DNA from: Porphyridium purpureum
Taxonomy: Eukaryota
Reading direction: 5' to 3'
Assembly: GCA_008690995.1 (NCBI GenBank)
Contig: VRMN01000003.1
Span: 1,984,001 to 2,048,000 of the forward strand
DNA length: 64,000 nucleotides
This document shows, one piece after another, positions 20,061-41,980 of this stretch; the stretch's first letter is position 1, and every line of letters begins with the position of its first letter. Below the pieces are notes generated by a model that saw only the letters and a program-made list of their open reading frames with translations, did no database searches and was not told the origin of the DNA. Made by a program: the position numbers and the translations under genes.

Positions 20061-22088
20061 ATGAATGGCACCCAGCTTGCGGCCGTCCATGTTGGGAACA
20101 CAAGCGTCCGTGCTCGGCCGCTGGAACCCAGGGACCATGAGCGGCACGTGCAGCAGCGGACGCTGCCGCGGCTAAGCGGTCTACGGCGCGGCGTTTGCCT
20201 CGAAGAAGACCCGGACGGGGGCATCGATGATTTGCTGGATATAGGACTCTTGGGCCAGCACGATGTTGGCACGGCGATATTGCACGACTTTTCGATCGAG
20301 CCAAACGTGAACTCATCGCAGTCATTTTTGCAGGATTTATGCCCTTCAAACCATCGGATGGCCGAGAGCTCCGCGTCTTCGTCTCAAAAGAACGTGCGAC
20401 GCGACCCGTGGTCATCACAGAGCTTTGAAATGGCGATCGACTCGTTGAGCGACGCCATGCAAAGCTCACTGAAGATGTGCGACGGCGTGTGGACCAGAAC
20501 CAACATTTGGTGTGACCCTCCGCTTGAACCTACCGCCGCGGCTCCTGTACCGCTCCAGATCCAGAGATCATCAATGCCCGGTGCGACCGCAACAGCAGGG
20601 GCCAACATCGAGTCGGCGTCTCCGAATGTGATGACGCTCAAGCTGATGGTACAATCACCGTGCGCTGATATTGCGTCAGGCTTACGCTTGATGCTTTGGA
20701 CTTCTGTTGGCATTCTCTGGGCGTCTCCCGGGCTCGGTAATGCATGCTTGGAGGTCAAAGTGGATGTTTCACGACTGGATGGTCCGATCGAGGTCTTTGC
20801 ACTTTGTGGGAGCGCCATGCTGGAGCATTTGAACACCGCCATTCTAGTGGCAGTGACAGCTCAGGGCGAGATTCTTCGCTATCAGCACACTCGTCCATCA
20901 CCGACCCTCCAGGAAGACGCGTACTCCTTGCTCCGTACCGATGCCAAATTTTTCGAGACGCCTTCAGTTGTGCCGGCCCTGTGTAATCCTGTGGATGCTT
21001 CTCCTGTCGCTGCGGTTCCAGAACCAGCGGCACTTCCTCCTGTATCTTCGGCCCAGGAAGCAAAGGTCTCATTCAAGCGAGCGCGTGCGCCGCGTGCGCC
21101 GCGTCCCCCGCCAGCCCCGCACCGAACCGCAAGTGCACCGGATCGTATCGCGGATCCCTCGACTTTAAAGAACGCAGAGCTGCATTCGGGCAGTAGCTCA
21201 CCTTTGGGCCCGCCACATAGTCTGCCAGTGCCGGTGTTGGCTTTAGACAAGCGCACGGACTTTCGCAGCAAGAGGCGCGGCGAATGGCGGACCGTTGCCG
21301 AAGTCAACGACTTCTGTGCGGCAGAGGGTGACTTGACGGGCATGCTGTGGCTGGACCACGAACACGACAACCACCACGACGCTTCTCAATTCAAGCAGGA
21401 GAGACTCCCCTCTCTCGGCCACGGCTGGTCCAGTCCCGCACGACCCAGGGCCAGCCCGTCCGGCGAGTGCTCAGAGACAACGACCTCGTCGCTTGCTACA
21501 AGTGTGCGAACTGGCGGCTTGTTTGGGACACCAAAGGACCAGGCCGGATGCGGCGGCCTTCACAAAAGCAGCAAGAGCAGGCTGCAGTCGCCTTACGAGT
21601 TCGGGGAGTCCGAGTCGTTTTTCAGCGCACCAGACTTGCGTTCGGCACCTTCACGAGAAGCGCTGGTAGGCAGCGCTATTTTGTCCGAGCCATCAACAAG
21701 CGTCGCGTCGGGATGCACGTACGTCACAGACGCATGGCTCGAACGCAAGGGCAGAATGACGCTTGCGCTGCTGCGCTACCGCCTGCAGGCAACGCACAAG
21801 TCCAAGTACATCAAGGTGATTACCAAGGATGACCTTCGCGGACTGCTGATGTTCTCGCGCGAGCTGATCGCCGAGGAGCTGAACATCTCCGTCACGCTTG
21901 TCAAGAAATTCTTCCGAGCCTGCGACATTGACACGTGGCCCTACCGCAGGGTGTACGTTATCCGCAGGCGGCTGCGCGAGTGCGAGCAGCAGCTTGCGGG
22001 GCCAGACGGAGCGCGCATGGCGCTTGAGATGGCACTTCTGACCGAAGAGTACAATCAAATTGAACGAGAAACTTTGCCATCTCAATAA
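20061..22088 (+). CDS. RWP-RK domain transcription factor (C-terminal domain)
   Basis: C-terminal ITKDDLRGLLMFSRELIAEELNISVTLVKKFFRACDIDTWPYRRV followed by a short coiled coil. Long disordered Ser/Pro-rich body. Start uncertain. Confidence 0.82.
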   Translation: MNGTQLAAVHVGNTSVRARPLEPRDHERHVQQRTLPRLSGLRRGVCLEEDPDGGIDDLLDIGLLGQHDVGTAILHDFSIEPNVNSSQSFLQDLCPSNHRMAESSASSSQKNVRRDPWSSQSFEMAIDSLSDAMQSSLKMCDGVWTRTNIWCDPPLEPTAAAPVPLQIQRSSMPGATATAGANIESASPNVMTLKLMVQSPCADIASGLRLMLWTSVGILWASPGLGNACLEVKVDVSRLDGPIEVFALCGSAMLEHLNTAILVAVTAQGEILRYQHTRPSPTLQEDAYSLLRTDAKFFETPSVVPALCNPVDASPVAAVPEPAALPPVSSAQEAKVSFKRARAPRAPRPPPAPHRTASAPDRIADPSTLKNAELHSGSSSPLGPPHSLPVPVLALDKRTDFRSKRRGEWRTVAEVNDFCAAEGDLTGMLWLDHEHDNHHDASQFKQERLPSLGHGWSSPARPRASPSGECSETTTSSLATSVRTGGLFGTPKDQAGCGGLHKSSKSRLQSPYEFGESESFFSAPDLRSAPSREALVGSAILSEPSTSVASGCTYVTDAWLERKGRMTLALLRYRLQATHKSKYIKVITKDDLRGLLMFSRELIAEELNISVTLVKKFFRACDIDTWPYRRVYVIRRRLRECEQQLAGPDGARMALEMALLTEEYNQIERETLPSQ

Positions 22089-22313
22089 AGGAAAGGGAGG
22101 TGCTTTGCACTCTTTGATGATGTCCTGGGACTCGAAAGACTCTGATTTACGCTTCTACTACCTCATTCGCATTGTTCTACTTTTACGTATTTTCACGAGG
22201 ACTCACTATTCACTTTCGAACAAGGCTGCAGTTCAAGATTCTTTCACTTTCGCAACCCGCGGACTTACCCGTCTTTCCTTTCACTACTCGGACTCCCGAG
22301 CTGCACGACGACA

Positions 22314-25300
22314 TTAAACATAGTTCTCCAAGGATTTCTTCAGTTCTGCAAGCTTCAACTTGAGCTTTTCCGGTACGCCACCCAACTGCTCGTAGAACGC
22401 CTCGTAGCGCGGAATGTCCACGAGCCAGTTGTCGCGATCGACAGAGAGAAGCGCCTTCAGATCCTCTGGGCTAATCGACAGCCCACTCACGTCGAGCGCA
22501 TCAACGGGCGGCAAGTTGCCAATGGGTGTGGCCACCGCTGACGCTGTTCCTTCGATGCGCTCTACGATCCACTTCAGCAAACGGACATTCTCACCGAAAC
22601 CTGGCCACATAAAGCGGCCACTCGCGTCCTTACGGAAAAAGTTCACGTAAAAGATGCGCGGCGCGTGTTCGCCCAATTTGGCTCCCATCGACAGCCAGTG
22701 CTCAAAGTACTGCGTAACAGAGTAGCCAAAGAAGGGCAACATTGCCATGGGGTCAATACGGAGCGAACCCACCTTGCCCTCAGCAGCGGCAGTCTGTTCC
22801 GATGAGCACACACTGCCTGCAAAAACGCCGTGCACCCAATCGCTTAGCTCGTTGACCAGCGGAATGGTCGTCTCGCGGCGGCCGCCAAAAATAATGGCCG
22901 AGATGGGCACACCTTCGGGATTCTCCCAATCGGGGTCAATCACCGGACAGTTCCCTGCGGGAGCCGTGTAACGCGCGTTCGGGTGCGCAGCCTTACGACC
23001 ACAACCAGGCGTCCATTTCTGATACGTCCAATCTTCCAATTCGGCTGGCGGCTCCGTGCTCATACCCTCCCACCATACGTCGCCGTCCGGCGTCAGTCCA
23101 ACATTCGTGTAGATAGAGTCCGACTTGAGTGCTTCCATAACTGAGTGATTCGTCAGGTCGCTTGTACCAGGCGCAACACCAAAGAAGCCAGACTCGGGAT
23201 TGATTGCACGTAGGCGGCCATCCTTACCAATATGCATCCAAGCCAGGTCGTCCCCAACCGTGGAAACCGACCAGCCTGGGATCGTCGGAACCATGAGCGC
23301 AAAGTTTGTCTTTCCGCATGCACTCGGGAATGCAGCGGCGACGTAGTACTTTTTGCCCGCCGGGTTCGTGATACCGAGAATCAGACAGTGCTCCGCCAGC
23401 CAGCCTTCGCGTCTCCCCAACACGCTCGCCATACGCAGGCCGTAGCATTTTTTGGGCAACAGCGCGTTGCCGCCGTATCCAGAGCGCAAACTGATGACCT
23501 GCGGATTCTCGCCGTCCGGGAAGTGGCAAATGTACTTGGGGTCATCGCATGGCCATTTGGAATCCACATCATTCGGCTTCAAAGATTTGCAAACCGAGTG
23601 GAAGCATGGCAGCCAGAACTTACCCTGCATAGCGCGCAGCACGTTGAAACCGATGCGCGTCATAATCTTGAGATTTACCACCACGTACGGCGAATCCGTG
23701 ATCTCAACGCCAAAGCGTGCGTACGGCGAGTCAATTGGTCCGCACACAAATGGAATCACATACATCGTTCGCCCGCGCATGCATCCTTGCATAATTTCGT
23801 TTAGCTCCTTCTTCATGCCCTCTGGTTCGCGCCAGTTGTTTGTCGGACCGGCATCCTCCTGCTTTTCTGAGCAAATAAATGTGCGCGACTCTACGCGAGC
23901 CACATCTTTTGGATCTGAGCGCGCCAAGAACGAATTCGGTCGTTTCTTCGGGTTCAGTCGCACAAACGTGCCGGCCTCAACCAGGACATCACACATGAGC
24001 TGGTATTCTTCTTCCGATCCATCACACCAGTGCACGTGCTCTGGCTCGCACAGCGCCTTCATTTCCTTGACCCAGCCGATCAACTTGGCGTCGGTGCACG
24101 GTACCTGCTCAACGGCGGCAAAGTGCAGCCGCTGCTCGAGGCTTGTCAGCTCACGATGGATCTCCTCCGGCCAATGGGCTTCCAGCTTGGCGTGGAACTT
24201 TCGCACCTGCGGCAACTCGTCAAGCCATTGCTGCGCATCCACTTTGAGCAACTGCTCTAGCGCACCAGGTGCTAGCTCTAACCCACTGAGATCCAGGGCA
24301 CCGGGCGCCGGCAGAATACCGATCGGGGTCGATACGCCGCCCGTGCGCTGGTTCTCCACGCGCTGCACCACCCACTTCAGCACGCGGGCATTATCGCCAA
24401 AGCCTGGCCATAAGAATCTCCCGTTCTGTGGATCTTTCTGGAACCAGTTCACGTAGAAAATGCGCGGCATCTTCTTTTCATTGATGTCGGCCAGGCGCTT
24501 GCCCATCGCCAGCCAGTTGTCACGCATATAGTCGCCCATATTGTACCCACAGAAGGGCAGCATGGCATACGGGTCAAAACGAAGCTCACCCAGTTTGCCC
24601 TCCGCAGCGGCGGTCTGTTCTGACGCACACATGGCGCCCATGAATACACCATGCTGCCAGCTGAAGCTCTCAGTGACCAGCGGAATGGTGCTGCCGCGAC
24701 GTCCGCCGAACAGCACGGCCGAAACGGGCACGCCTTCAGGATTTTCCCAGTCCGGGTCGAGCACGGGGCAATTGATTGCTGGCACCGTGTATCGTGCGTT
24801 CGGATGGGCGGCAAGTCGCCCACAATCTGGTGTCCATTTCTGCCCTTGCCAATCTTCCAGTTCGGCTGGTGGCTCGGGTGTCATGCCCTCCCACCACACA
24901 TCACCGTCGGGCGTAAGTGCGCAATTGGTGAAAATCACGTTTTCGCCGAGGGCGGCCATAGCGCTGGGATTGGTAAAGCTGCTTGTTCCAGGCGCAACCC
25001 CGAAGAATCCACTCTCAGGATTCATCGCGCGCAGCGACCCGTCGGGTGCTGGGTGCATCCACGCAATGTCATCGCCGAGCGTGGTCACTTTCATGCCAGG
25101 AACGGTAGGCACGAGCATCGCCAAATTCGTCTTGCCACATTGGCTCGGCAACGCAGCAGTGATGTAACTCTTCTTTGAACCACTCATCTCCAGACCCAGA
25201 ATAAGCATGTGCTCGGCCATCCAGCCCTCGCGGCGGCCCATCTCGCTGGCAATGCGAAGCGCGAGGCATTTCTTACCGAGAAGCGCATTCCCACCTCCGC

Positions 25301-27824
25301 CACTACCAAAGCTCATAATTTCCGGACCGTCGGCTTCGTGCGGGAAATGGGAGATGTATTTGGTCTCGTTGCACGGCCACGCAACGTCCAGCTCAGCGGG
25401 CGCAAGAGGACGACCAACAGAATGCAAGCACTTGACAAACGATCCGTCCTTGCCTAGCATACGAAGCACGCGGAAGCCTACACGCGTCATGATGTGCATG
25501 TTGGCCACGACATACGGACTGTCAGTGATCTGCACGCCGACGCGCGAGTACGGCGAGTCAAGTGGGCCCATGGAAAAGGGAATAACAAACAGCGTGCGAC
25601 CTTGCATGGCGCCGTCAAATAGACCCTCCAAGATCTTGCGCATCTCAGCCGGGTCAAACCAGTTATTTGTCGGGCCAGCTTCCTCCAATGTCGTCGTGCA
25701 CACAAATGTGCGGCTTTCAACACGGGCGACATCGTTCGGGTGCGAACGCGCAAGGTACGAGTTGGGGCGCTTCTTTGGGTCAAGTCGCACGAATGTGCCT
25801 GTTTCAACGCAAATGTCGCACATGAGCTGATACTCTTCGCGCGATCCATCGCACCAAAAGACGTGCTCCGGTTTGCACAGAGACGTCATGCGGCGGACCC
25901 AGTCCGAGAGGCGCTTGTTGGTGGTCGGTGCATTGTCCCGCAGTGCGAAATGCAGTCGCAGCTCGAGCTCTACAAGCTCGTGGCGCAGAGCGGGTGGGAG
26001 AAATTCACCCAACTTGTCCTGGTGCGCTCGGATTTGCGGCAGCTCATCAAGCCATTGCTGCGGATTCACTAACAGCAGCTCTTGCATCTCTTGCTTGGTC
26101 ACCTTGAGCCCGTGCAGGTCTACTGCGCCCTCGGCTGGCACCACGCCGACGGGGGTGTGGCGTCCACGCGCCGAGCCGTCAAGGCGGCCGAGCATCCACT
26201 TGAGCACACGCGAGTTCTCGCCAAAGCCGGGCCACAAGAAGCGGCCAGAACCACCTGCATCTTTGCGGAACCAGTTGACGTAGAAAATCTGCGGTGCCTG
26301 ACCGCCTAGTCGCTCGCCCATATCGAGCCAGTGCTTTTCGTACTCACCGCAGTTGTACCCGATGAATGGCAACATCGCGAACGGGTCAATGCGGAGCGTG
26401 CCGGCCTTCCCTTCAGCGGCCGCGGTCTGCTCGGACGAGCACATGGAACCCATGAAGACGCCATGCTGCCAGCTGAACGCCTCCGTGACCAACGGCACCG
26501 TGGTGGCACGGCGGCCACCAAAGACAATGGCCGAGATCGGAACGCCCTTGGGGTCCTGCCAGCGCGGGTCCATCACGGGGCAATTGGCGGCCGGTGCCGT
26601 GTAGCGCGCGTTCGGATGCGCAGCTGGGCGCCCACAGTCGGGCGTCCATTTCTGGAACGTCCAATCCTCAAGCTCAGCTGGTGGTTCTGGCGTCATGCCA
26701 TCCCACCACACATCACCGTCGGGCGTCAAAGCAACGTTGGTAAAAATGCAGTGCTCGGTGAGCGCCGCCATCGCGCTCGGATTTGTAAAGCTGCTCGTAC
26801 CGGGCGCTACGCCAAAGAATCCGTTCTCCGGATTAATGGCGTACAGGCGATTGTCGTCCTTGTCCTGGCGCATCCAGGCAATATCGTCACCGACCGTCGT
26901 CACCTTGAGACCCGGAATCGTCGGCACGAGCATGGCCAGGTTGGTTTTGCCGCACGCGCTCGGGAATGCAGCCGCGATGTAATGAGTCTGATTCGTGGAG
27001 GTCTGCGTGAGGCCCAGAATCAAGCAGTGCTCCGCCATCCACCCTTCTTCCAGTCCCATTGTACTTGCGATGCGTAGTGCAAAGCACTTTTTCGACAACA
27101 GTGCGTTCCCTCCGTACGCGCTGCCGTACGACATAATCGAAGGATCCTCAGGAAAGTGGCAAATATACTTGTTCTTGTTGCATGGCCAGCGCACGTCCTT
27201 CTCGCCTGGCGCGAGCGGTTTGCCGACGGAATGCACACACGGCACAAAGTCCCGCTTCTTGCCGATGCGCTGCAGCACGGCGGTGCCGACGCGCGTCATG
27301 ATGTGCATGTTGACCACCACAAATGCGCTATCCGTCAGCTGTATGCCGCAGCGCGACAGCGGCGAGTCAATGGGACCCATGCAGAATGGAATGACATACA
27401 TGGTTCTGCCACGCATGCAACCTTTGTACAGTTCGTGCAGGGTCTGCTTCATCTCGTCCGGCTCGGCCCAGTTGTTTGTCGGTCCTGCGTCCTCCTCGTA
27501 CGTTGTGCAAATAAACGTGCGGCTTTCGACGCGCGCGACGTCACTGGGGTCGGAGCGGGCCAAGTAGCAGTCCTTGCGCTTTTTTTCGTTCAACTTGATC
27601 ATTGTGCCAGCCTCGACGAGCTCCGCGGTCAAGCGGCTCCACTCGTGCGCCGACCCATCGCAGATCACGACGCTCTGCGGCTCGCACAAGGTGGCGTACT
27701 TGACAATGAACTTTTGCAGATGCTTGTTGTCGAGCCAATACACTGGCGCGAGATCTGGCGGCCCCTTACCGGCGGCGACCACGGCAGTGGCGGCGGCCAC
27801 CTCCTCCTTTGCGGCCGTGTCCAT
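22314..27824 (-). CDS. PCK: Triple-domain GTP-dependent phosphoenolpyruvate carboxykinase (three tandem PEPCK units, 1836 aa)
   Basis: DVARVESRTF, GGNALLxKKC, AEH, PSxCGKTN, GDDxAW, HPNARY, SEQTAAAEGK and WPGFG(E/D)N each occur three times in one uninterrupted frame. First ATG (MDTAAKEE) at 27824. Confidence 0.95.
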   Translation of the reverse strand: MDTAAKEEVAAATAVVAAGKGPPDLAPVYWLDNKHLQKFIVKYATLCEPQSVVICDGSAHEWSRLTAELVEAGTMIKLNEKKRKDCYLARSDPSDVARVESRTFICTTYEEDAGPTNNWAEPDEMKQTLHELYKGCMRGRTMYVIPFCMGPIDSPLSRCGIQLTDSAFVVVNMHIMTRVGTAVLQRIGKKRDFVPCVHSVGKPLAPGEKDVRWPCNKNKYICHFPEDPSIMSYGSAYGGNALLSKKCFALRIASTMGLEEGWMAEHCLILGLTQTSTNQTHYIAAAFPSACGKTNLAMLVPTIPGLKVTTVGDDIAWMRQDKDDNRLYAINPENGFFGVAPGTSSFTNPSAMAALTEHCIFTNVALTPDGDVWWDGMTPEPPAELEDWTFQKWTPDCGRPAAHPNARYTAPAANCPVMDPRWQDPKGVPISAIVFGGRRATTVPLVTEAFSWQHGVFMGSMCSSEQTAAAEGKAGTLRIDPFAMLPFIGYNCGEYEKHWLDMGERLGGQAPQIFYVNWFRKDAGGSGRFLWPGFGENSRVLKWMLGRLDGSARGRHTPVGVVPAEGAVDLHGLKVTKQEMQELLLVNPQQWLDELPQIRAHQDKLGEFLPPALRHELVELELRLHFALRDNAPTTNKRLSDWVRRMTSLCKPEHVFWCDGSREEYQLMCDICVETGTFVRLDPKKRPNSYLARSHPNDVARVESRTFVCTTTLEEAGPTNNWFDPAEMRKILEGLFDGAMQGRTLFVIPFSMGPLDSPYSRVGVQITDSPYVVANMHIMTRVGFRVLRMLGKDGSFVKCLHSVGRPLAPAELDVAWPCNETKYISHFPHEADGPEIMSFGSGGGGNALLGKKCLALRIASEMGRREGWMAEHMLILGLEMSGSKKSYITAALPSQCGKTNLAMLVPTVPGMKVTTLGDDIAWMHPAPDGSLRAMNPESGFFGVAPGTSSFTNPSAMAALGENVIFTNCALTPDGDVWWEGMTPEPPAELEDWQGQKWTPDCGRLAAHPNARYTVPAINCPVLDPDWENPEGVPVSAVLFGGRRGSTIPLVTESFSWQHGVFMGAMCASEQTAAAEGKLGELRFDPYAMLPFCGYNMGDYMRDNWLAMGKRLADINEKKMPRIFYVNWFQKDPQNGRFLWPGFGDNARVLKWVVQRVENQRTGGVSTPIGILPAPGALDLSGLELAPGALEQLLKVDAQQWLDELPQVRKFHAKLEAHWPEEIHRELTSLEQRLHFAAVEQVPCTDAKLIGWVKEMKALCEPEHVHWCDGSEEEYQLMCDVLVEAGTFVRLNPKKRPNSFLARSDPKDVARVESRTFICSEKQEDAGPTNNWREPEGMKKELNEIMQGCMRGRTMYVIPFVCGPIDSPYARFGVEITDSPYVVVNLKIMTRIGFNVLRAMQGKFWLPCFHSVCKSLKPNDVDSKWPCDDPKYICHFPDGENPQVISLRSGYGGNALLPKKCYGLRMASVLGRREGWLAEHCLILGITNPAGKKYYVAAAFPSACGKTNFALMVPTIPGWSVSTVGDDLAWMHIGKDGRLRAINPESGFFGVAPGTSDLTNHSVMEALKSDSIYTNVGLTPDGDVWWEGMSTEPPAELEDWTYQKWTPGCGRKAAHPNARYTAPAGNCPVIDPDWENPEGVPISAIIFGGRRETTIPLVNELSDWVHGVFAGSVCSSEQTAAAEGKVGSLRIDPMAMLPFFGYSVTQYFEHWLSMGAKLGEHAPRIFYVNFFRKDASGRFMWPGFGENVRLLKWIVERIEGTASAVATPIGNLPPVDALDVSGLSISPEDLKALLSVDRDNWLVDIPRYEAFYEQLGGVPEKLKLKLAELKKSLENYV

Positions 27825-28609
27825 TGAATCTCTCTCTGCCTGTGCTCCCTGCGCTCCTCTACACTTGGCAGTCCCCAGATCCCCTCTCAATCCCCGTTTG
27901 CTGTGCTTGCGCTCTCCTTGTTCTCTCTCTGTGTGCCTCTCTCTATGCTCCTTGCTCTCCTTGCGCCGCGGCTGCGTGGTTGGCGTGGTAGGCGTGGTAG
28001 GCGAGCAAGCGGCAGTGGGATCAGCGCTTAAGTAGCTGCGCGTGCGCGAGGCTGCGGTACCGCAGACGGTGTGTGTTTATGACACGCGTGCATGTCCGCC
28101 CTCACATGCAAGGACCGCTCTTCTGCGCAACGCGTGTGCCGCATGGTTGCATGCATGCGCCTGCCCTTCAAACGAAGCGGGCAACTGCTAGCTCGTGCCA
28201 CCAAGATGCGCACGCGGTGTGCGTGGAATGCAACCACGCGCGCGCCGCTACTAAAACAGCGCCGGAACATACGGACACAATATCCACACACGCACGCGGC
28301 GCTGACACGTCGACGCACAGGCAGCGCCCGCGCCCGAAAATCTCGGAACAAGATTACATCGTGCTGTACACCCGGAAACGTCATCGTGCGGCGGGGTACA
28401 GCGACAGCGGTGCGGCGGCATGGCGCACGCGGTGCAGAGCTCGAGCGCATCAAAGTTCTCTTTAACCTAGCACGGACTGGACGGGGGACTATTCTGGACA
28501 GACGCGTCGTGTCGCAGGCTCGCGCCGCGCCGTGCACGCTGGTTGGCAGGTGGGGGTTCGGGCACTTGTGTGAGAGCGGGAGCGAGAGGATCGGTGGCGC
28601 GCGGACGGT

Positions 28610-29482
28610 TTAATATCCGTAGCTCGACGCGCGCTTGGCCGCGGCCATCGCCGGGTACGTGTTCGCGTAGCCCTCCTCAAAGTGTGTGGACGAGAACAGG
28701 TCGCGGCCGTACTTGCTCTGCGCGTAGCGCTCGGCAGCAAACTGCGACGCAGACTTCTGCGCCGAGCGGAACGCGACCGCGAGCGCGGCGACGCGCGCCT
28801 GCTCGGCCTGGCCCTTCGCGTTGCCCTCCACGCACGAGCTCTTGTACACGCCGCTCGCGGTGGTTCCGCGCATCTTGTTCACCTTGTCCACCGACGCCGC
28901 CAGGAACTCCTCCTCAATGCTTTCCGGCACCGCGTAGCGTTGGCATGCGCGAGTGACTTCCGTGCTTGCCATCAGTGCGGCGGCGGCGAGCTTCGGGTAC
29001 TTGATGTACTGCTTCTCCTGGTGGTCGTTCTGAGCCAGGATCAGCGCAAGGCGGCGGTTCTCGTACATGGCGCCGGTCTTCTCGGCCGCCGAGCGCTGGT
29101 TCATGCGGAATGCCGCAGACAGGGCCATGGCGCGCTTCTCGTGGGCCATTCCCTTGGCCGATCCCTCCATGCACTGGATGCCGTACACGCCGTACGGAAT
29201 CGCCGCCGCCTTGCCCTCCATGGTCACCGACTTGGCAAAAAACATGTCTGCCTTGTCCAGGGCCTTGTTGACGTTTTTCTTGGTGACCTTGGCGGAAAAT
29301 CCGCTCACCTTGGGTACGCGCTGGAAGCGGCGCATGTTGACAGACGACACGGCGCCCGTCACCATGTGCACCTGGCTGTTGCTGCTGCTGCTGCGACGCG
29401 CCGTCTTGTCGCATACCGCTGTCGCCCCAAACTTGGCCACGGCCGCCTTGCCCATAAACCCACTTACAAACGCCGTCTCCAT
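28610..29482 (-). CDS. Phycoerythrin gamma-type chromophorylated phycobilisome linker, plastid-targeted
   Basis: Transit peptide METAFVSGF...; two internal repeats GVYGIQCMEGSAKG..R.MAL..AFR..QRS and GVYKSSCVEGNAKG..R.AAL..AFR..QKS typical of gamma subunits. Confidence 0.9.
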   Translation of the reverse strand: METAFVSGFMGKAAVAKFGATAVCDKTARRSSSSNSQVHMVTGAVSSVNMRRFQRVPKVSGFSAKVTKKNVNKALDKADMFFAKSVTMEGKAAAIPYGVYGIQCMEGSAKGMAHEKRAMALSAAFRMNQRSAAEKTGAMYENRRLALILAQNDHQEKQYIKYPKLAAAALMASTEVTRACQRYAVPESIEEEFLAASVDKVNKMRGTTASGVYKSSCVEGNAKGQAEQARVAALAVAFRSAQKSASQFAAERYAQSKYGRDLFSSTHFEEGYANTYPAMAAAKRASSYGY

Positions 29483-34449: not shown

Positions 34450-37400
34450 ATGGCAGAGGATGGGCCGCACGATCGAGGAGAAAGAGCGATGCCGCAGCGG
34501 GACAACACCAGTGTGGAAAACAGCCGTGTCAGCTCCATCCTTTACAATAGCGAGGCATCAGCCGCACTCGCGCGGCCGTCGCCGGTGTCGCTGTCGCCGA
34601 ACTCTGTGGATTCGGCCGAGCGAGAGGGTGGTGAGTGTGCGGAACTCGTGGAGAGCTTGAGTGCACTTGAAAGCAGTGGGTTTGACAGTTCACAAAAGCC
34701 GCTGACGGCGCTGCCGAGCACGGTCGTCGACGAACAGTTTGTGACGTCGATCGGGCTCGTGTCGAAGGAGGATGGACTGGATGCGTTAGGGAGCGACGAG
34801 GCCGACGCGGACGCAGGACCAGAGCTCCTTCTGAGCAAGCGACTTGCATTCAGTCTCGAGGACGCGGCAAATGCGGGATCCCAGGAAGCCGCAGAAGCTC
34901 TGGCCGAGCTGGCGGCCTCTTCACATCATCCCGAGTCGGGTACATTCAGTATTGCGTCCCAATTGTCATCAGCTGCGGCGGCATATTGGGCGCAGAATCA
35001 GCAGATTCAAGAGGAGCATCAGAAACAGCAGCATGAGCAGGAACATCGGCAGCAACAACAACAGGAGGACAGAAACCGTGGCGGAAAGGAGCAGTCGGTA
35101 CCTCCACAGGGCCAGCCAATCTCTTCACGCAAATCGCCTGCCTTAAATGCGGCGCCCGTGGCGCGGCCAAGCCCCAGGAGTGAGGCGACGAGGACGTTGC
35201 CATCACCTCAGCTGCAAGCTTTGGTGCGGAGGGCGAGCGAGCTTACTCGAGACAGCGGCTCTGTGGCCAACTCAGTGGCCAAGCACCACCGTGAATTCTC
35301 GGATATAGAGGAAATTCTGTTCGAGAACCTCTCGAGCGAGGCGATCCAGTCACGGTCTCTAGAGGAAGTGCTGGCGGACGCTGATTCGCTAGAACAGGTG
35401 CTGCTGTCACACCTTCACGACGTGCTAGCCAACTTGAACGCGGTGCGAGGTAAGAAAAGATTGCTGCGAAACCGGCGCGTATCGGCAAACTCGAAAGCAT
35501 TTGGGAATGAAAAAGACAAGAATCGCCGTAACGGACCTCTCGGCAATGACGCCTTCGAGTGGTCTTCTGCACAGGAGCAGCAAAATCCGAAACGTATTAT
35601 TTCAATATCAGCGTGCCTGCCGTCCATTGAAGAGCGGAAGAACCCGTTGTTCTCGCTACACATGCCCGCGGCGGGATTTCCTCCCAATGCAATGGGTCTT
35701 GTAGAGGAAGCAACGGACTTGAACTTTGTATGGGTAGGGCGTTATCTTTGCGACGATCCGGACCAGTACCCACCGGGACGGAATTGGCGCCGTGTGATGA
35801 GCGATCACAAGGACACGCACACACATGCGCACCCTTTACATTCATCCCATTTGTACACGGCGCACGGCTCCGCAGGCGGCGACTACGGCTCTTCAACAGT
35901 TTCTACGAGCTCGGCAATACTCAGCGGGTCAATAGCCGTACGTATTCCGGAAGAGCTTATCGAGAGCTTTTCAAACTTTTGCAACAATACCCTGTGGCGG
36001 CTGCTGCACTATGACTACGACTCGCTGGGTGACGAGAAGGAGGAGGTCGAGTGGGAGGCGTACAAAGCCGTTAATATGCGCTTCGCCGAAGTCGTGGCAG
36101 AGTTTTATGAGGAGGGCGACCTAATCTGGGTGCATGATTACCATTTGCTGCTTTTGCCCGCGATGCTCAGGAAGCGTCTTTGGAAAGCAAAGATTGGCGC
36201 GTTCTTGTATGTGCCTTTCCCTTCGCAAGAAATCTTTAGAATTTTGCCACAGCGCGTCGAAGTCTTGCGGGGCATCCTGGGCGCAGATCTGGTTGGATTT
36301 TACACGTACGCCTACTCGAAGCAGTTTGTTGCGTCGTGTTTCAGGTTGCTGGGGCTGGAAGGGACACCCAAGGGCATTGAGACAGACGAGCCAGGCAATC
36401 GCACGTGCGAGCTGGGTATCTATCCGGGTGGGAGCAATGTAAACGCTCTGCGACGGCTTCGACAGAGTCCGATTGTGCATGCACGCGTCGACGAGTTCCA
36501 GCGCTCTTTCGCTGGTATGCAGATTATCGTGGGCATTGACTACATGGATGATCTATTTGCCGGCTTGTTACACAAGCTGCTAGCGTTTGGTGAGTTCCTA
36601 CGTGAAAACCCGAGCTTTTTGGGTAACGTAGTGCTGGTGCAGGTCGGGCTCGAACTCGATGACGTCTCTAACGAATCGCATGGCCCGTTTTTGAATTCAC
36701 TGGGCATTGCGCACTCGTCAGTCCAACACCTTTCGACTCTTGTGAATGAGCACGTTGGCCGCATCAACGCCAAGTACGGAACTTTGACCTACTCGCCCGT
36801 GCACTTTGTCCGCTCGCGACCAAATACAGTGGAGCTTGTGAGCCTAATGGCTGCGGGACACGTGTGTATCATGTCGTGTGTGAGAGATGGTATGCGGCTA
36901 CTACCGCACGACTGGACAGTGTGCCAGCACGGTGGGAACATGGGTCCACTCATTCTGTCAAACTTCTCGGGCTCGTCGCAATCCTTTGCGCTGGCTGTGC
37001 ACGTGAACCCTTGGGACACGACGGCCGTCGCCACTGCGTACCTTGACTGCTTGAAAATGAGCCCAGAGGAAAAGCGCATGCGCGACGACGCGGCATACCG
37101 CTTTGTCTCAACACACACTGCACAGTTGTGGGGAACAAACTTTCTCGAGGATCTTGCATCAGTGCAAGTGAATCAGCGCTGGACGGGCCCGCTACCGGCA
37201 ATGCAAGTGCCAAGCATGCGCGACGCGTTTGCCAGCTCTCAAAAGTACCGCATGCTGATGTTTCGACTAGAGGGTGCACTCATGTCGCACCAGAACGTCG
37301 TGCAGCTCGCAGCACCGTCATCGTCTGTGCTGCAGCTGCTCAGCACGCTTCTTGACGACACAAGAAACCTGGTCTTTGTGCTCACCTGGCGTGACCGTCG

Positions 37401-38877
37401 TATCGCATCTAGATGGTTTCGACGACTGCTCCTATACCCGAACTTTGGTCTGATATCTGAGGACGGTTGCTTTGTTCGCTGGCCAGCGGCCAGCGCGGTG
37501 CCTGACGGTCAGCCAGAGCATGTGGCCGAGGACATGATTAGTACACAAATTGCAGATGAGGACACGATTGAACGCATGCTGGAGGACGCGCTTCGGGCTG
37601 AGCAGCGCGTGCCGGAAAGAAACCAGCAGGACTGGAACGAGATCGGCGATGGCGCCCAAACGATGACAAGGAGGGGCAGTGACACTCTTGTAGGAGGCGC
37701 GAATGGGTCGGAGAATGCGAGCAGCATTCGCTCGGCGGATGTCTTTGCCGGGGACGTAGAGAATGTGGAAAACTCGAGGAGACTTTTGGGCAAATGGGAA
37801 TCGTTTGTCCAAGGCATTGCGCTGCAGGAGCGTGTACCGATCACAGACTTGACCATAGTCGAGGGCTCATCGCCGGCTCAATGGGGTACTCACGCGAGCA
37901 TGTACAGCCACGTTCCGTCCCCGCAATTTACCATCAACACACGGAGCCCGCATGACTCGCGACCGAGAAGTCCGAATTCGCTCTCTGGATCTGAGGTGAC
38001 TTACGCTGATGGCGGTGTCGACGATGCATTGCCTGCGGCTTCTGCGCGCTTTGCAGCAGCGTCAGACGCACTTGAGAATGCAGCAGATTTAGGGACCGCA
38101 AATCGCGCCTCCGTCCCGGTACCCTTGCCAATGCCCGTGCCAGTGCCTGTACCTGAGCGCTCGCGCAGTCGCAATGTTCATGGCGGGGGAAGCAGCACTG
38201 ATTTAAGCCGTGCAAACAGTGCCAGTGGGCCTCGTAGCTTTTTAAGTGCAAGTGGTATGTCAGTTTCAGACCGTTCGCCTTTCCGTCGCTTTCTGGTCGA
38301 CTCGGAGCATGCACCGGACGTTTTGGAAGAGTTGGTGGTGTCTGATACACTTGAGTGGAAGGAGTCTGTGATTTCCGTGATGAAGCACTTTTCGGAGCGC
38401 ACGCCGGGCGCGTTTCTCGAGGAAGGCGAAGCGATTGTGACTTGGCACTACCATGACGCAGACGCTGACTTTGGCAAGTGGCAGTCGCGCGATTTACATC
38501 GCCACCTTGAAGCATTCATGCTGCGCAGCGTCATCTCAAGCGACCAGGTCGCCAAGTGGATCCGCGTGTGCCCTGTTGGCGCAGACCGCGTGTCATCTGT
38601 TGAGCGCGTTTGCCAGGTGATGTGCCACCTGTGTGACTACTTTCTGTACGTCGGCTGCGACGGGACGGATAATCATGTGTTCGAGACGATCCGCAGGAAC
38701 AACGGTGAGCTCCTACAGAAAGCGTCGTTTGTCGGTGAAGTGGAGACTGTCTTTGTGGGCTCGCGAGGGCTAAACTCATCCGCGCGGTATTGTGTTGACT
38801 CACCGGCGGCATTTCTCGATGCTTTGCGCGTCATCGTGGGCATTGCGCCTCCCAATCTTCCCAGTGGTCGATCGTGA
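34450..38877 (+). CDS. Trehalose-6-phosphate synthase/phosphatase-like fusion (GT20 + HAD), apparently degenerate active sites
   Basis: FCNNTLWRLLHY, WEAYKAVN.RFA, DLIWVHDYHL, PFPSQEIFR, LGADLVGF, VNPWD, FSERTPGAFLEEGE..WHY. Start MAEDG at 34450. Confidence 0.92.
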   Translation: MAEDGPHDRGERAMPQRDNTSVENSRVSSILYNSEASAALARPSPVSLSPNSVDSAEREGGECAELVESLSALESSGFDSSQKPLTALPSTVVDEQFVTSIGLVSKEDGLDALGSDEADADAGPELLLSKRLAFSLEDAANAGSQEAAEALAELAASSHHPESGTFSIASQLSSAAAAYWAQNQQIQEEHQKQQHEQEHRQQQQQEDRNRGGKEQSVPPQGQPISSRKSPALNAAPVARPSPRSEATRTLPSPQLQALVRRASELTRDSGSVANSVAKHHREFSDIEEILFENLSSEAIQSRSLEEVLADADSLEQVLLSHLHDVLANLNAVRGKKRLLRNRRVSANSKAFGNEKDKNRRNGPLGNDAFEWSSAQEQQNPKRIISISACLPSIEERKNPLFSLHMPAAGFPPNAMGLVEEATDLNFVWVGRYLCDDPDQYPPGRNWRRVMSDHKDTHTHAHPLHSSHLYTAHGSAGGDYGSSTVSTSSAILSGSIAVRIPEELIESFSNFCNNTLWRLLHYDYDSLGDEKEEVEWEAYKAVNMRFAEVVAEFYEEGDLIWVHDYHLLLLPAMLRKRLWKAKIGAFLYVPFPSQEIFRILPQRVEVLRGILGADLVGFYTYAYSKQFVASCFRLLGLEGTPKGIETDEPGNRTCELGIYPGGSNVNALRRLRQSPIVHARVDEFQRSFAGMQIIVGIDYMDDLFAGLLHKLLAFGEFLRENPSFLGNVVLVQVGLELDDVSNESHGPFLNSLGIAHSSVQHLSTLVNEHVGRINAKYGTLTYSPVHFVRSRPNTVELVSLMAAGHVCIMSCVRDGMRLLPHDWTVCQHGGNMGPLILSNFSGSSQSFALAVHVNPWDTTAVATAYLDCLKMSPEEKRMRDDAAYRFVSTHTAQLWGTNFLEDLASVQVNQRWTGPLPAMQVPSMRDAFASSQKYRMLMFRLEGALMSHQNVVQLAAPSSSVLQLLSTLLDDTRNLVFVLTWRDRRIASRWFRRLLLYPNFGLISEDGCFVRWPAASAVPDGQPEHVAEDMISTQIADEDTIERMLEDALRAEQRVPERNQQDWNEIGDGAQTMTRRGSDTLVGGANGSENASSIRSADVFAGDVENVENSRRLLGKWESFVQGIALQERVPITDLTIVEGSSPAQWGTHASMYSHVPSPQFTINTRSPHDSRPRSPNSLSGSEVTYADGGVDDALPAASARFAAASDALENAADLGTANRASVPVPLPMPVPVPVPERSRSRNVHGGGSSTDLSRANSASGPRSFLSASGMSVSDRSPFRRFLVDSEHAPDVLEELVVSDTLEWKESVISVMKHFSERTPGAFLEEGEAIVTWHYHDADADFGKWQSRDLHRHLEAFMLRSVISSDQVAKWIRVCPVGADRVSSVERVCQVMCHLCDYFLYVGCDGTDNHVFETIRRNNGELLQKASFVGEVETVFVGSRGLNSSARYCVDSPAAFLDALRVIVGIAPPNLPSGRS

Positions 38878-40507: not shown

Positions 40508-41980
40508 ATGGCGTTTGTCAATGGGTTTAGCGGCGGCGCGGCGGCCGTGCCGCGGCGAGGCGTGGCGAGAGTGTGCGCGCAAAGGGTGGTCATGAAGGTG
40601 GTGGATCGCCTGGATAGCCAGCCCAGCGCGGCGTTCGAGCAGACGAAGCAGGTGTATACCTTCTCGCGGTACATTCTGGGCCCGCACCGCGCCGTGGTCG
40701 CGCCGGTCGCCATGGATCCGTCCGAGAAGGAGGTCGTGCTGCGCGCGGTGTACAGGCAGGTGTTTGGCAACGCATACATCATGGAGGAGGAACGCGCGGA
40801 GCTGCGGGTGATGGAGTCCCAGTTCCTGCTGGGAGAGCTCTCGGTGAAGGAGCTCGTGCGCGCGTTGGCCAAGAGCTCCACCTACAAGGTGCGCTTCTTC
40901 GAGGGCGCTGTCCAGTACAGGTTCATTGAGCTGTGCTTTAAGCATTTGCTGGGTCGCGCCCCAGATAACCACGAGGAAATCGCGGTGCACATGCGCAAGT
41001 ACCAGCAGGAAGGATATGACGCGGAGATCGACAGCTACCTCGACGCCGGCGAGTACGACAACGTGTTTGGTGATGACACGGTGCCGTTCCTGCGCTTCCG
41101 TGGCGTGTACACGCCGTGCGACTCGTTCAACCGCCAGTGCGCTCTGCAGGGTGGATGGGCTAACTCGGACAAGGCAATGGGTGGTGCGGCGCTGTCTGGC
41201 TACAACGGGTCGGACGGTCGCCAGATGAGCACGATGATTGGAAACTACATTTCCGGCAAGCCCATTCCGTATGAGAAAGTTGCCGCGGATACGCCGCTCA
41301 AGTCGACCGCGCCCAACTGGTACGCGCGCCCGAACCCGGCGCTCGCACCGCAGCCGGCTTATGTGTCTGCCAAGGAAATCGCCGAGCTGAGGAGCCGCGT
41401 CAGCAAACTGGAAGCAGCGTGGTCCGTGGCAGTCAAGCAATCAGCAGCGGCCAAGGACACTGTGGAGACGTGGCGTGCTGCAGCGAAGGAGATGGCCGCC
41501 ATGCGGGGCATCTCGCCCATGGGCGAAGCTTACTTTGGCGGAATTGCGCAGAAGGTTGACAATGGAGCGCTTGCGCAGCTTGGCAACAAGGCGTCTTCGT
41601 ACAAGAAGTACTTGTACGCGATTGAGACGGACGAGGTGAGTCGGCTTGAGGTGGATCTGGAGGAAGCCAAGGGTCAGCTGCGCGTCCTGGAGGCGGCGAT
41701 GGCGAAGAGCACACCCATGACCCGCACGGCTGAATTCAAGACCTTGACGAAGAATGTGGCGGCCGTGACTGCGGCCGAGAAGGCCGATCCGCTGTCAAAG
41801 CGCCCGCGTATCTCCGCGTCCCGGCCAAAGCCCACCCCAGCGGCGGCCAAAATGGCAGCGGCGGAGAAGAAGAAGGGCCCATTCGGCTTGTCGGTGCCAA
41901 GCTTGCCAAATCTGCCAAACCTGCCGAAGCTGCCGAGCCTTAGTCTGCCCAAGGTGAGCCTGCCGTTTGGCAAGAAGTAA
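40508..41980 (+). CDS. Phycobilisome rod linker polypeptide (PBS_linker_poly domain), plastid-targeted
   Basis: Transit peptide MAFVNGF...; linker domain LRAVYRQVFGNAYIMEEER..ESQF..SVKELVRALAKS.TY..RFF..RFIELCFKHLLGRAP..EY...FGDDTVPF.R; coiled-coil and Leu/Pro-rich tail. Confidence 0.93.
   Translation: MAFVNGFSGGAAAVPRRGVARVCAQRVVMKVVDRLDSQPSAAFEQTKQVYTFSRYILGPHRAVVAPVAMDPSEKEVVLRAVYRQVFGNAYIMEEERAELRVMESQFLLGELSVKELVRALAKSSTYKVRFFEGAVQYRFIELCFKHLLGRAPDNHEEIAVHMRKYQQEGYDAEIDSYLDAGEYDNVFGDDTVPFLRFRGVYTPCDSFNRQCALQGGWANSDKAMGGAALSGYNGSDGRQMSTMIGNYISGKPIPYEKVAADTPLKSTAPNWYARPNPALAPQPAYVSAKEIAELRSRVSKLEAAWSVAVKQSAAAKDTVETWRAAAKEMAAMRGISPMGEAYFGGIAQKVDNGALAQLGNKASSYKKYLYAIETDEVSRLEVDLEEAKGQLRVLEAAMAKSTPMTRTAEFKTLTKNVAAVTAAEKADPLSKRPRISASRPKPTPAAAKMAAAEKKKGPFGLSVPSLPNLPNLPKLPSLSLPKVSLPFGKK

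Follow-up and report, generated by a model that had tools for sequence, protein, structure and literature searches.

A GTP-PEPCK of three units in one polypeptide from Porphyridium purpureum and its multi-unit relatives

In the red alga Porphyridium purpureum, three whole GTP-PEPCK units are joined in a single open reading frame. It lies in a stretch of 64,000 nucleotides that was analysed as a whole (the window). Chains of two to eight such units exist in other organisms as well, and in the amoebozoan-type chains both end units are decayed in a selective manner. Multi-unit PEPCK is a real architecture of a known enzyme that apparently has not been described before, and the family is more notable than the single gene. 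The interpretation we prefer, with a probability of about 0.55, is that of an uncleaved cytosolic chain which carries out the ordinary GTP-PEPCK reaction with specialised units; at the extreme, an end unit would be a GTP/GDP-binding pseudo-enzyme that tunes its neighbour.

Translation of the window gave a frame without internal stops (Table 1), and no N letter occurs anywhere in the 64,000 nucleotides. Pfam recognised PEPCK_N and PEPCK_GTP three times each, above the curated cut-off and with 953 and 1568 bits, respectively. The original prediction of one uninterrupted ORF with three complete PEPCK units was thus borne out. Each catalytic motif that it had named for every unit was found three times, at a spacing of about 605 residues, and the linkers it had quoted for both unit joins match the sequence. 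The units also lie at about the places it had given, but its borders were one base off the codon frame.

Table 1. Positions of the PEPCK gene, its parts and neighbouring features in the window.
Feature	Position	Strand	Remarks
Three-unit GTP-PEPCK ORF	22314..27824	-	1836 aa, about 200 kDa, intron-less; ATG at 27824, TAA at 22314
Unit 1	25947..27824	-	residues 1-626, short Ala-rich leader; 10/10 core residues
Unit 2	24117..25946	-	residues 627-1236; 9/10 core residues
Unit 3	22317..24116	-	residues 1237-1836; 10/10 core residues
Junction 1	25923..25958	-	last helix of unit 1 enters unit 2 via about 8 residues
Junction 2	24096..24131	-	unit 2 into unit 3; lowest model confidence, pLDDT <50 at three residues
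Gly codon at the Tyr235 equivalent of unit 2	25296..25298	-	PEP-contacting residue lost; no other letter in run contigs
Transcript-shaped X7 contig	22203..27985	-	extends beyond the ORF by about 160 nt on the 5' side and 110 nt on the 3' side; strand and true ends not shown by contigs
RWP-RK protein gene	20061..22088	+	convergent with the PEPCK gene
290-aa ORF	28610..29482	-	no Pfam match
Trehalose-phosphate synthase/phosphatase	34450..38877	+	1475 aa
Phycobilisome linker	40508..41980		Pfam-positive

The three units of the window agree with each other in 388/600, 361/596 and 364/599 residues (65, 61 and 61%) and in 62-65% of the DNA. Four-fold sites are identical in 73/205, 69/196 and 80/194 cases (35-41%), i. 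e. synonymous sites are saturated, and the longest DNA run identical between units is 26 nt. Because of this low four-fold agreement and the short shared run, the duplication of the units must be old and does not reflect a duplicated contig. The chain is probably cytosolic, as had been proposed: its N-terminus is short and acidic and no transit peptide was evident on inspection of the sequence, whereas the SOD encoded in the window has a transit-peptide-like start.

The gene content of the window is intron-poor and includes eIF5, proteasome and clathrin genes and a nuclear phycobilisome linker. Taken with the closest relatives of the chain, which belong to the Porphyridiales, this content marks the source as a red alga. 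The stop of the RWP-RK protein gene is separated from that of the PEPCK gene by 225 bases. The 290-aa ORF has a transit-peptide-like start and repeated helical units, and we assume that it is similar to the gamma or linker proteins of red algal phycobilisomes. The trehalose-phosphate synthase/phosphatase is extended N-terminally by about 490 aa, in which Pfam has no match.

For the comparison of active sites, residues were counted in 26 apparently complete multi-unit proteins and 118 single PEPCKs. Human numbering was set through motif anchors, with no direct alignment; their spacing matches the residue lists in the available portion of PMC4631375. The Mn ligands K244, H264 and D311, the P-loop residues S286, C288, K290 and T291 and the guanine pocket residues F517, W527, P528, F530 and N533 are kept in all three units of the window; in unit 3 the intact pocket is accompanied by W516F. 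The PEP/OAA residues R87, Y235, G237, N403 and R405 are all present in units 1 and 3. In unit 2, Y235 is replaced by Gly; this position is Tyr in 117 of the 118 single PEPCKs. An older study (Dharmarajan 2008) reportedly bears on Tyr235 of PEPCK. Contact of this residue with PEP is reported in the portion of PMC4631375 that was available. We discarded the column labelled E469 as a criterion, Glu being present in just 4/118 singles.

Further changes surround these residues. Unit 2 has F284L and A287Q at the P-loop. Unit 1 has G234A and G242S adjoining the PEP loop and unit 3 has G232R and G242P around it, all at positions invariant in 118/118 singles. At 179 invariant columns, units 1, 2 and 3 deviate 10, 8 and 15 times, compared with a median of 4 for inner units and about 50 for the end units of amoebozoan-type chains (caps, i. 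e. the first or last unit). Since these changes are unit-specific and hit positions that are near-invariant in singles (Tyr235Gly, the loop glycines), the three units probably are not kinetically equal. PEP handling is probably impaired in unit 2; units 1 and 3 probably are active but retuned, and the three may not all be fully active. The expectation that all units are intact and canonical therefore holds for the metal and P-loop residues but not for Tyr235 of unit 2 and the invariant glycines of units 1 and 3. Units 1 and 3 do not correspond to amoebozoan-type caps either: both have K244 and a complete set of core residues.

The homolog search yielded 267 matches, of which 120 were listed and the first 59 profiled for unit number. 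Among these 59, 33 further clusters, the window's own excluded, contain two to eight abutting PEPCK units. Thus the triple is no one-off. Cavostelium, Phalansterium, Soliformovum, Arcella, Pyxidicula, Thecamoeba, Echinamoeba and Vermamoeba, which we take to be amoebozoans, are sources of such proteins; the others are Cladochytrium and Nowakowskiella, presumably chytrids, and the algae P. aerugineum and Timspurckia. The amoebozoan-type chains have 3, 4 or 8 units. A Paradermamoeba protein of 670 aa ends C-terminally in the start of a second PEPCK unit. Every named source is eukaryotic, and about half of the matches are metagenome proteins without a named source, so a prokaryotic multi-unit PEPCK among them is possible. 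A search of 50%-identity representatives, used for outgroups only, returned no long multi-unit chain among the best 150. No PEPCK chain was among the six matches of a search in proteins of 3214-5000 aa; nonetheless, a 4821-aa protein (P0162) exists inside a cluster.

P0162 has eight units and clusters with a Eutreptiella fragment. Its first and last units are decayed; the six inner units are intact and 82-100% alike. As the units nest among amoebozoan ones and two of them are 100% identical, its host and unit count are uncertain; the eight units may reflect a recent expansion or an assembly effect. Similarly, the units of a four-unit protein filed as Schistocerca gregaria (P0004) nest among amoebozoan units; judged by this placement, it probably comes from an amoeba contaminating that assembly. 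The searches also brought up PEPCKs joined to other enzymes. Many of the proteins P0040-P0121 are single GTP-PEPCKs, about 1030-1070 aa long, fused to GAPDH (PF02800/PF00044; some named as Actinomycetota) or to an aminotransferase (PF00155). In six proteins of 3300-4200 aa (P0445, P0238, P0446, P0447, P0311, P0448) PEPCK is joined to other central-carbon enzymes, by our assignment of the Pfam domains TIM, PFK, aldolase, PPDK, malate synthase, isocitrate lyase and glutamate dehydrogenase. These six could be genuine polyproteins of metabolism or result from read-through in gene calling.

In 15 amoebozoan-type chains, all ten core residues are present in each of the 32 inner units, in none of the 15 first units and in none of the 15 last units. 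K244 is kept in 0/30 caps and their lid is eroded. The loss is selective: the caps retain 270/300 GTP-pocket residues (90%), compared with 73% at background invariant columns and 122/300 PEP/Mn residues (41%). In 2000 draws of random 10-column sets the GTP figure was reached in 1% and the PEP figure in none, in a permutation that ignores the kinship of the caps; because the caps are kin, all 30 count as few events. The dead caps have been kept at full length across amoebozoan lineages. From these sequence patterns, the amoebal end units are likely to act as nucleotide-sensing regulators.

The same selectivity appears in unit 1 of P. aerugineum, which has 5/10 core residues and retains 9/10 of the GTP pocket versus 2/10 of the PEP/Mn residues. 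Since it is nested among red algal units, this is an independent case of decay. Unit 1 of Timspurckia is part-way decayed, with 7/10 core residues, 10/10 of the GTP pocket and 7/10 of the PEP/Mn residues. The three red algal orthologues thus form a natural series in which unit 1 goes from active to dead, and the birth of a pseudo-enzyme becomes directly testable. The first units of five two-unit proteins speak against a universal rule: GTP residues (42/50) and PEP residues (40/50) are kept about equally, although K243 and D311 are absent in 5/5. Both chytrid triples likewise have 10/10 core residues in every unit, so a division of labour is not required for the multi-unit architecture.

The history of the units was followed with IQ-TREE (41 rows, LG+G4, only two caps included); 13 redundant or partial proteins and four of the eight units of P0162 were omitted from a FastTree run. 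Units in the same position group together across the window, P. aerugineum, Timspurckia and one further protein, with support of 100/100, 100/97 and 100/99, and a tree in which the three units of the window are each other's closest relatives was rejected (p-AU 9e-14). Therefore the PEPCK triple is older than the divergence of these Porphyridiales. All tandem units fall into one eukaryotic clade (34 rows, 100/98). This clade also holds the single-unit proteins of Bangiopsis, Creolimax and one further source, so that repeated fusions or secondary fissions must have occurred. Chytrid unit 1 joins red algal unit 1 with support of 90/93, and the four residues that precede the junction are common to both groups. 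These are hints, drawn from sequence, that the red algal and chytrid triples share one origin. A single origin could not be taken as established: the joint clade of 18 rows is weak (88/74), and separate origins, tested as a clade restricted to the 12 red algal-type units, are not rejected (p-AU 0.125).

The interpretation we prefer runs as follows. Ancient head-to-tail duplication within one eukaryotic PEPCK clade would have produced the chain, which likely stays intact in the cytosol and, in this alga, probably converts oxaloacetate and GTP to PEP for gluconeogenesis and cataplerosis. The units are likely to be specialised and not redundant. Through tethering, a terminal unit could have lost its PEP/Mn site and lid but retained the GTP/GDP pocket, and such a unit could then report the nucleotide status to the adjoining one. 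With all its metal and P-loop residues retained, the protein of the window would represent an early or incomplete stage of this process.

The strongest competitor, which we consider rather unlikely yet far from negligible, is that the chain stays whole and its units work independently like beads on a string. The benefit would then be a higher number of active sites from each round of translation, or else a particle of larger size; the dead ends would be structural leftovers. In AlphaFold2 models of residues 30-1229 and 637-1836 every unit adopts the full PEPCK fold (mean pLDDT 87), and Foldseek aligned the latter model to M. tuberculosis PEPCK 4r43 with an rmsd of 1.3 A over one unit (TM 0.96 to the target). 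The pTM of the two-unit pieces was only 0.56 and 0.58 (alignments of just 23 and 20 rows). Hence a fixed packing of the units against each other is not predicted, and the junction has low confidence, which fits independent units. The models thus give no support to a rigid inter-unit interface; with 20-23 alignment rows they are weak evidence. Few columns separate tandem units from singles (12 weak ones, with no clear interface patch), and the intactness of every chytrid unit is in line with independent units as well. The spacing of the units can be read in both ways. Counted from W527 to the conserved Gly with which the following unit all but begins, it is 126-134 residues in all 64 junctions of the 26 apparently complete multi-unit proteins (129 and 130 in the window), and none of the junctions has grown a long linker. 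Direct fusion of the natural termini of single enzymes would yield about the same short junction. What independent units do not explain is that decay is tied to position, sparing every inner unit and no cap, that it is selective for the PEP/Mn site, and that dead caps persist at full length while no linker has expanded.

Alternatively, the chain could be a polyprotein from which proteolysis at the junctions releases ordinary monomers, as in the light-harvesting polyproteins of euglenids and dinoflagellates. In the model the junction is exposed and has low confidence, and the four unit-ending residues (RLHF or RLHY/RLYF) are conserved where red algal and chytrid units meet. However, these residues are part of the last helix of the fold, and the 49 aligned junctions contain no cleavage motif common to all groups. 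Moreover, dead monomers set free by cleavage would not be restricted to the ends of chains. We regard processing as improbable.

Of the two roles that had been suggested, regulation between units is the better one. The other, a C4-like device of the alga that concentrates CO2 by boosting its local release or fixation, can draw on the PEPCK-type C4-like pathway that the available text of PMC7491142 proposes for the red alga Pyropia, and on the high depth of the X7 contig in one run, contig depth being a poor measure of expression. Yet non-photosynthetic amoebae and chytrids share the architecture, and because heterotrophs have the same design a role in CO2 concentration is unlikely. As no transit peptide is evident, the CO2 would be released away from Rubisco; the Pyropia PEPCKs are predicted to be mitochondrial (same portion of PMC7491142).

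The physical continuity of the gene was examined in sequencing runs. At least half of the sampled words were contained in 20 of 24 listed runs, from seven studies; 10 of them may be source DNA. Contigs across the PEPCK gene were examined in four RNA or guessed-RNA runs (X7, X11, X13, X20). In three of these (X7, X11, X13) a single contig covers both junctions without differences, gaps or joints. The X7 contig has a depth of 2922, with 7 and 0 in the outermost flank bins. The X11 contig (22106-27903) has a depth of 26, and the pieces outside it are only 151 bases long. The X13 contig (21800-27829) continues into the neighbouring gene, so that this run may include DNA. X20 also spans both junctions, yet it is interrupted at 24009/24017, roughly 100 nt into unit 3. 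There is a loose end of 27 letters at this point, and the depth is 421 on the unit 3 side versus 252; the other three runs read through. Both junctions, at which stops or separate transcripts would have told against the original prediction, are thus crossed without difference. Complete three-unit ORFs were also obtained from the transcriptomes of P. aerugineum and Timspurckia. Given these and the transcript-shaped limits of the contig, a single transcript for the triple is very likely, although contigs alone are no proof. That an artefact of assembly or gene calling fused three adjacent genes, for which only the break and loose end within unit 3 in one of four runs could speak, is highly improbable in view of the absence of stops and N letters, the saturated synonymous divergence, the identity of contigs from separate studies over both junctions and the same order of three units in other species; the triple is covalent and no collapsed or duplicated assembly, as originally argued.

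If the preferred reading of an uncleaved chain with specialised units is extended to the whole family, one arrives at a more tentative picture. Multi-unit PEPCKs could form a eukaryote-wide class of covalent, length-defined chains with a catalytic middle and GTP/GDP-binding pseudo-enzyme ends that allosterically gate the PEP-oxaloacetate node. The Porphyridiales would then show the birth of such a pseudo-enzyme, from an intact state in the window through partial decay in Timspurckia to a dead unit in P. aerugineum; the red algal/chytrid triple may record a transfer from eukaryote to eukaryote. Chains of 2-8 units with position-specific pseudo-enzyme ends would point to an overlooked mode of control, from red algae to free-living amoebae. 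In addition, annotations that list one PEPCK gene in these organisms conceal up to eight copies of the active site.

GTP-PEPCK is a textbook single-unit enzyme, and we are not aware of any well-established allosteric regulatory subunit. For the PEPCK of Euglena, an old study reportedly gave a native mass of several hundred kDa. Multi-unit forms proved common in the databases, but a description of them was not found in the open-access literature; one in subscription papers is possible. They are not mentioned in the available portions of PMC12547629, PMC4631375, PMC5613351, PMC10991915, PMC7491142, PMC7729029 and PMC6630311. In the accessible part of PMC6630311, the Euglena GTP-PEPCK is described as cytosolic and present on acetate or ethanol. 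A rise of 'PPCK' under nitrogen starvation in P. purpureum (PMC10991915) was rejected as evidence on PEPCK, the only match in the supplement available to us being PEP carboxylase kinase.

Compared with GTP-PEPCK (EC 4.1.1.32), the chain of the window has the same fold, domain pair, Mn ligands, P-loop, lid and guanine pocket, and it matches M. tuberculosis PEPCK with an E value of 9e-227. The reference enzymes (M. tuberculosis 4wiu/4r43, Polaromonas 9e32, C. glutamicum 2zci, rat and human cytosolic PEPCK) have a single unit, and all 23 of 23 matching solved PEPCK sequences are single-unit proteins of 605-626 aa, whereas the window's chain has three linker-less units in 1836 aa and unit 2 lacks their Tyr235. 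A single unit of about 600 aa is typical of characterised GTP-PEPCKs but is not in the EC definition. With the multi-unit PEPCKs of amoebozoans, chytrids and Porphyridiales the chain shares whole units arranged head to tail, the spacing of 126-134 residues and one clade. It differs in being nearly intact with unit-specific changes at the PEP loop, whereas amoebozoan-type chains are decayed at both ends and the chytrid triples are fully intact.

Whole enzymes duplicated in tandem are known from the mammalian 100-kDa hexokinases I-III and eukaryotic phosphofructokinase, in which one half has become regulatory and ligand sites are kept. These have two copies and unrelated folds and their regulation has been shown, while the PEPCK chains have 2-8 copies, decay at both ends in amoebae and an inferred regulation. 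Phosphagen kinases also occur as contiguous multi-domain proteins. A paper on the contiguous three-domain creatine kinase was not found in the open-access literature, and no end-cap pattern is known to us for multi-domain phosphagen kinases. The creatine kinase of sea urchin sperm flagella, a three-domain enzyme, likewise has three catalytic units per polypeptide; its fold is unrelated and it is tied to energy transport in the flagellum.
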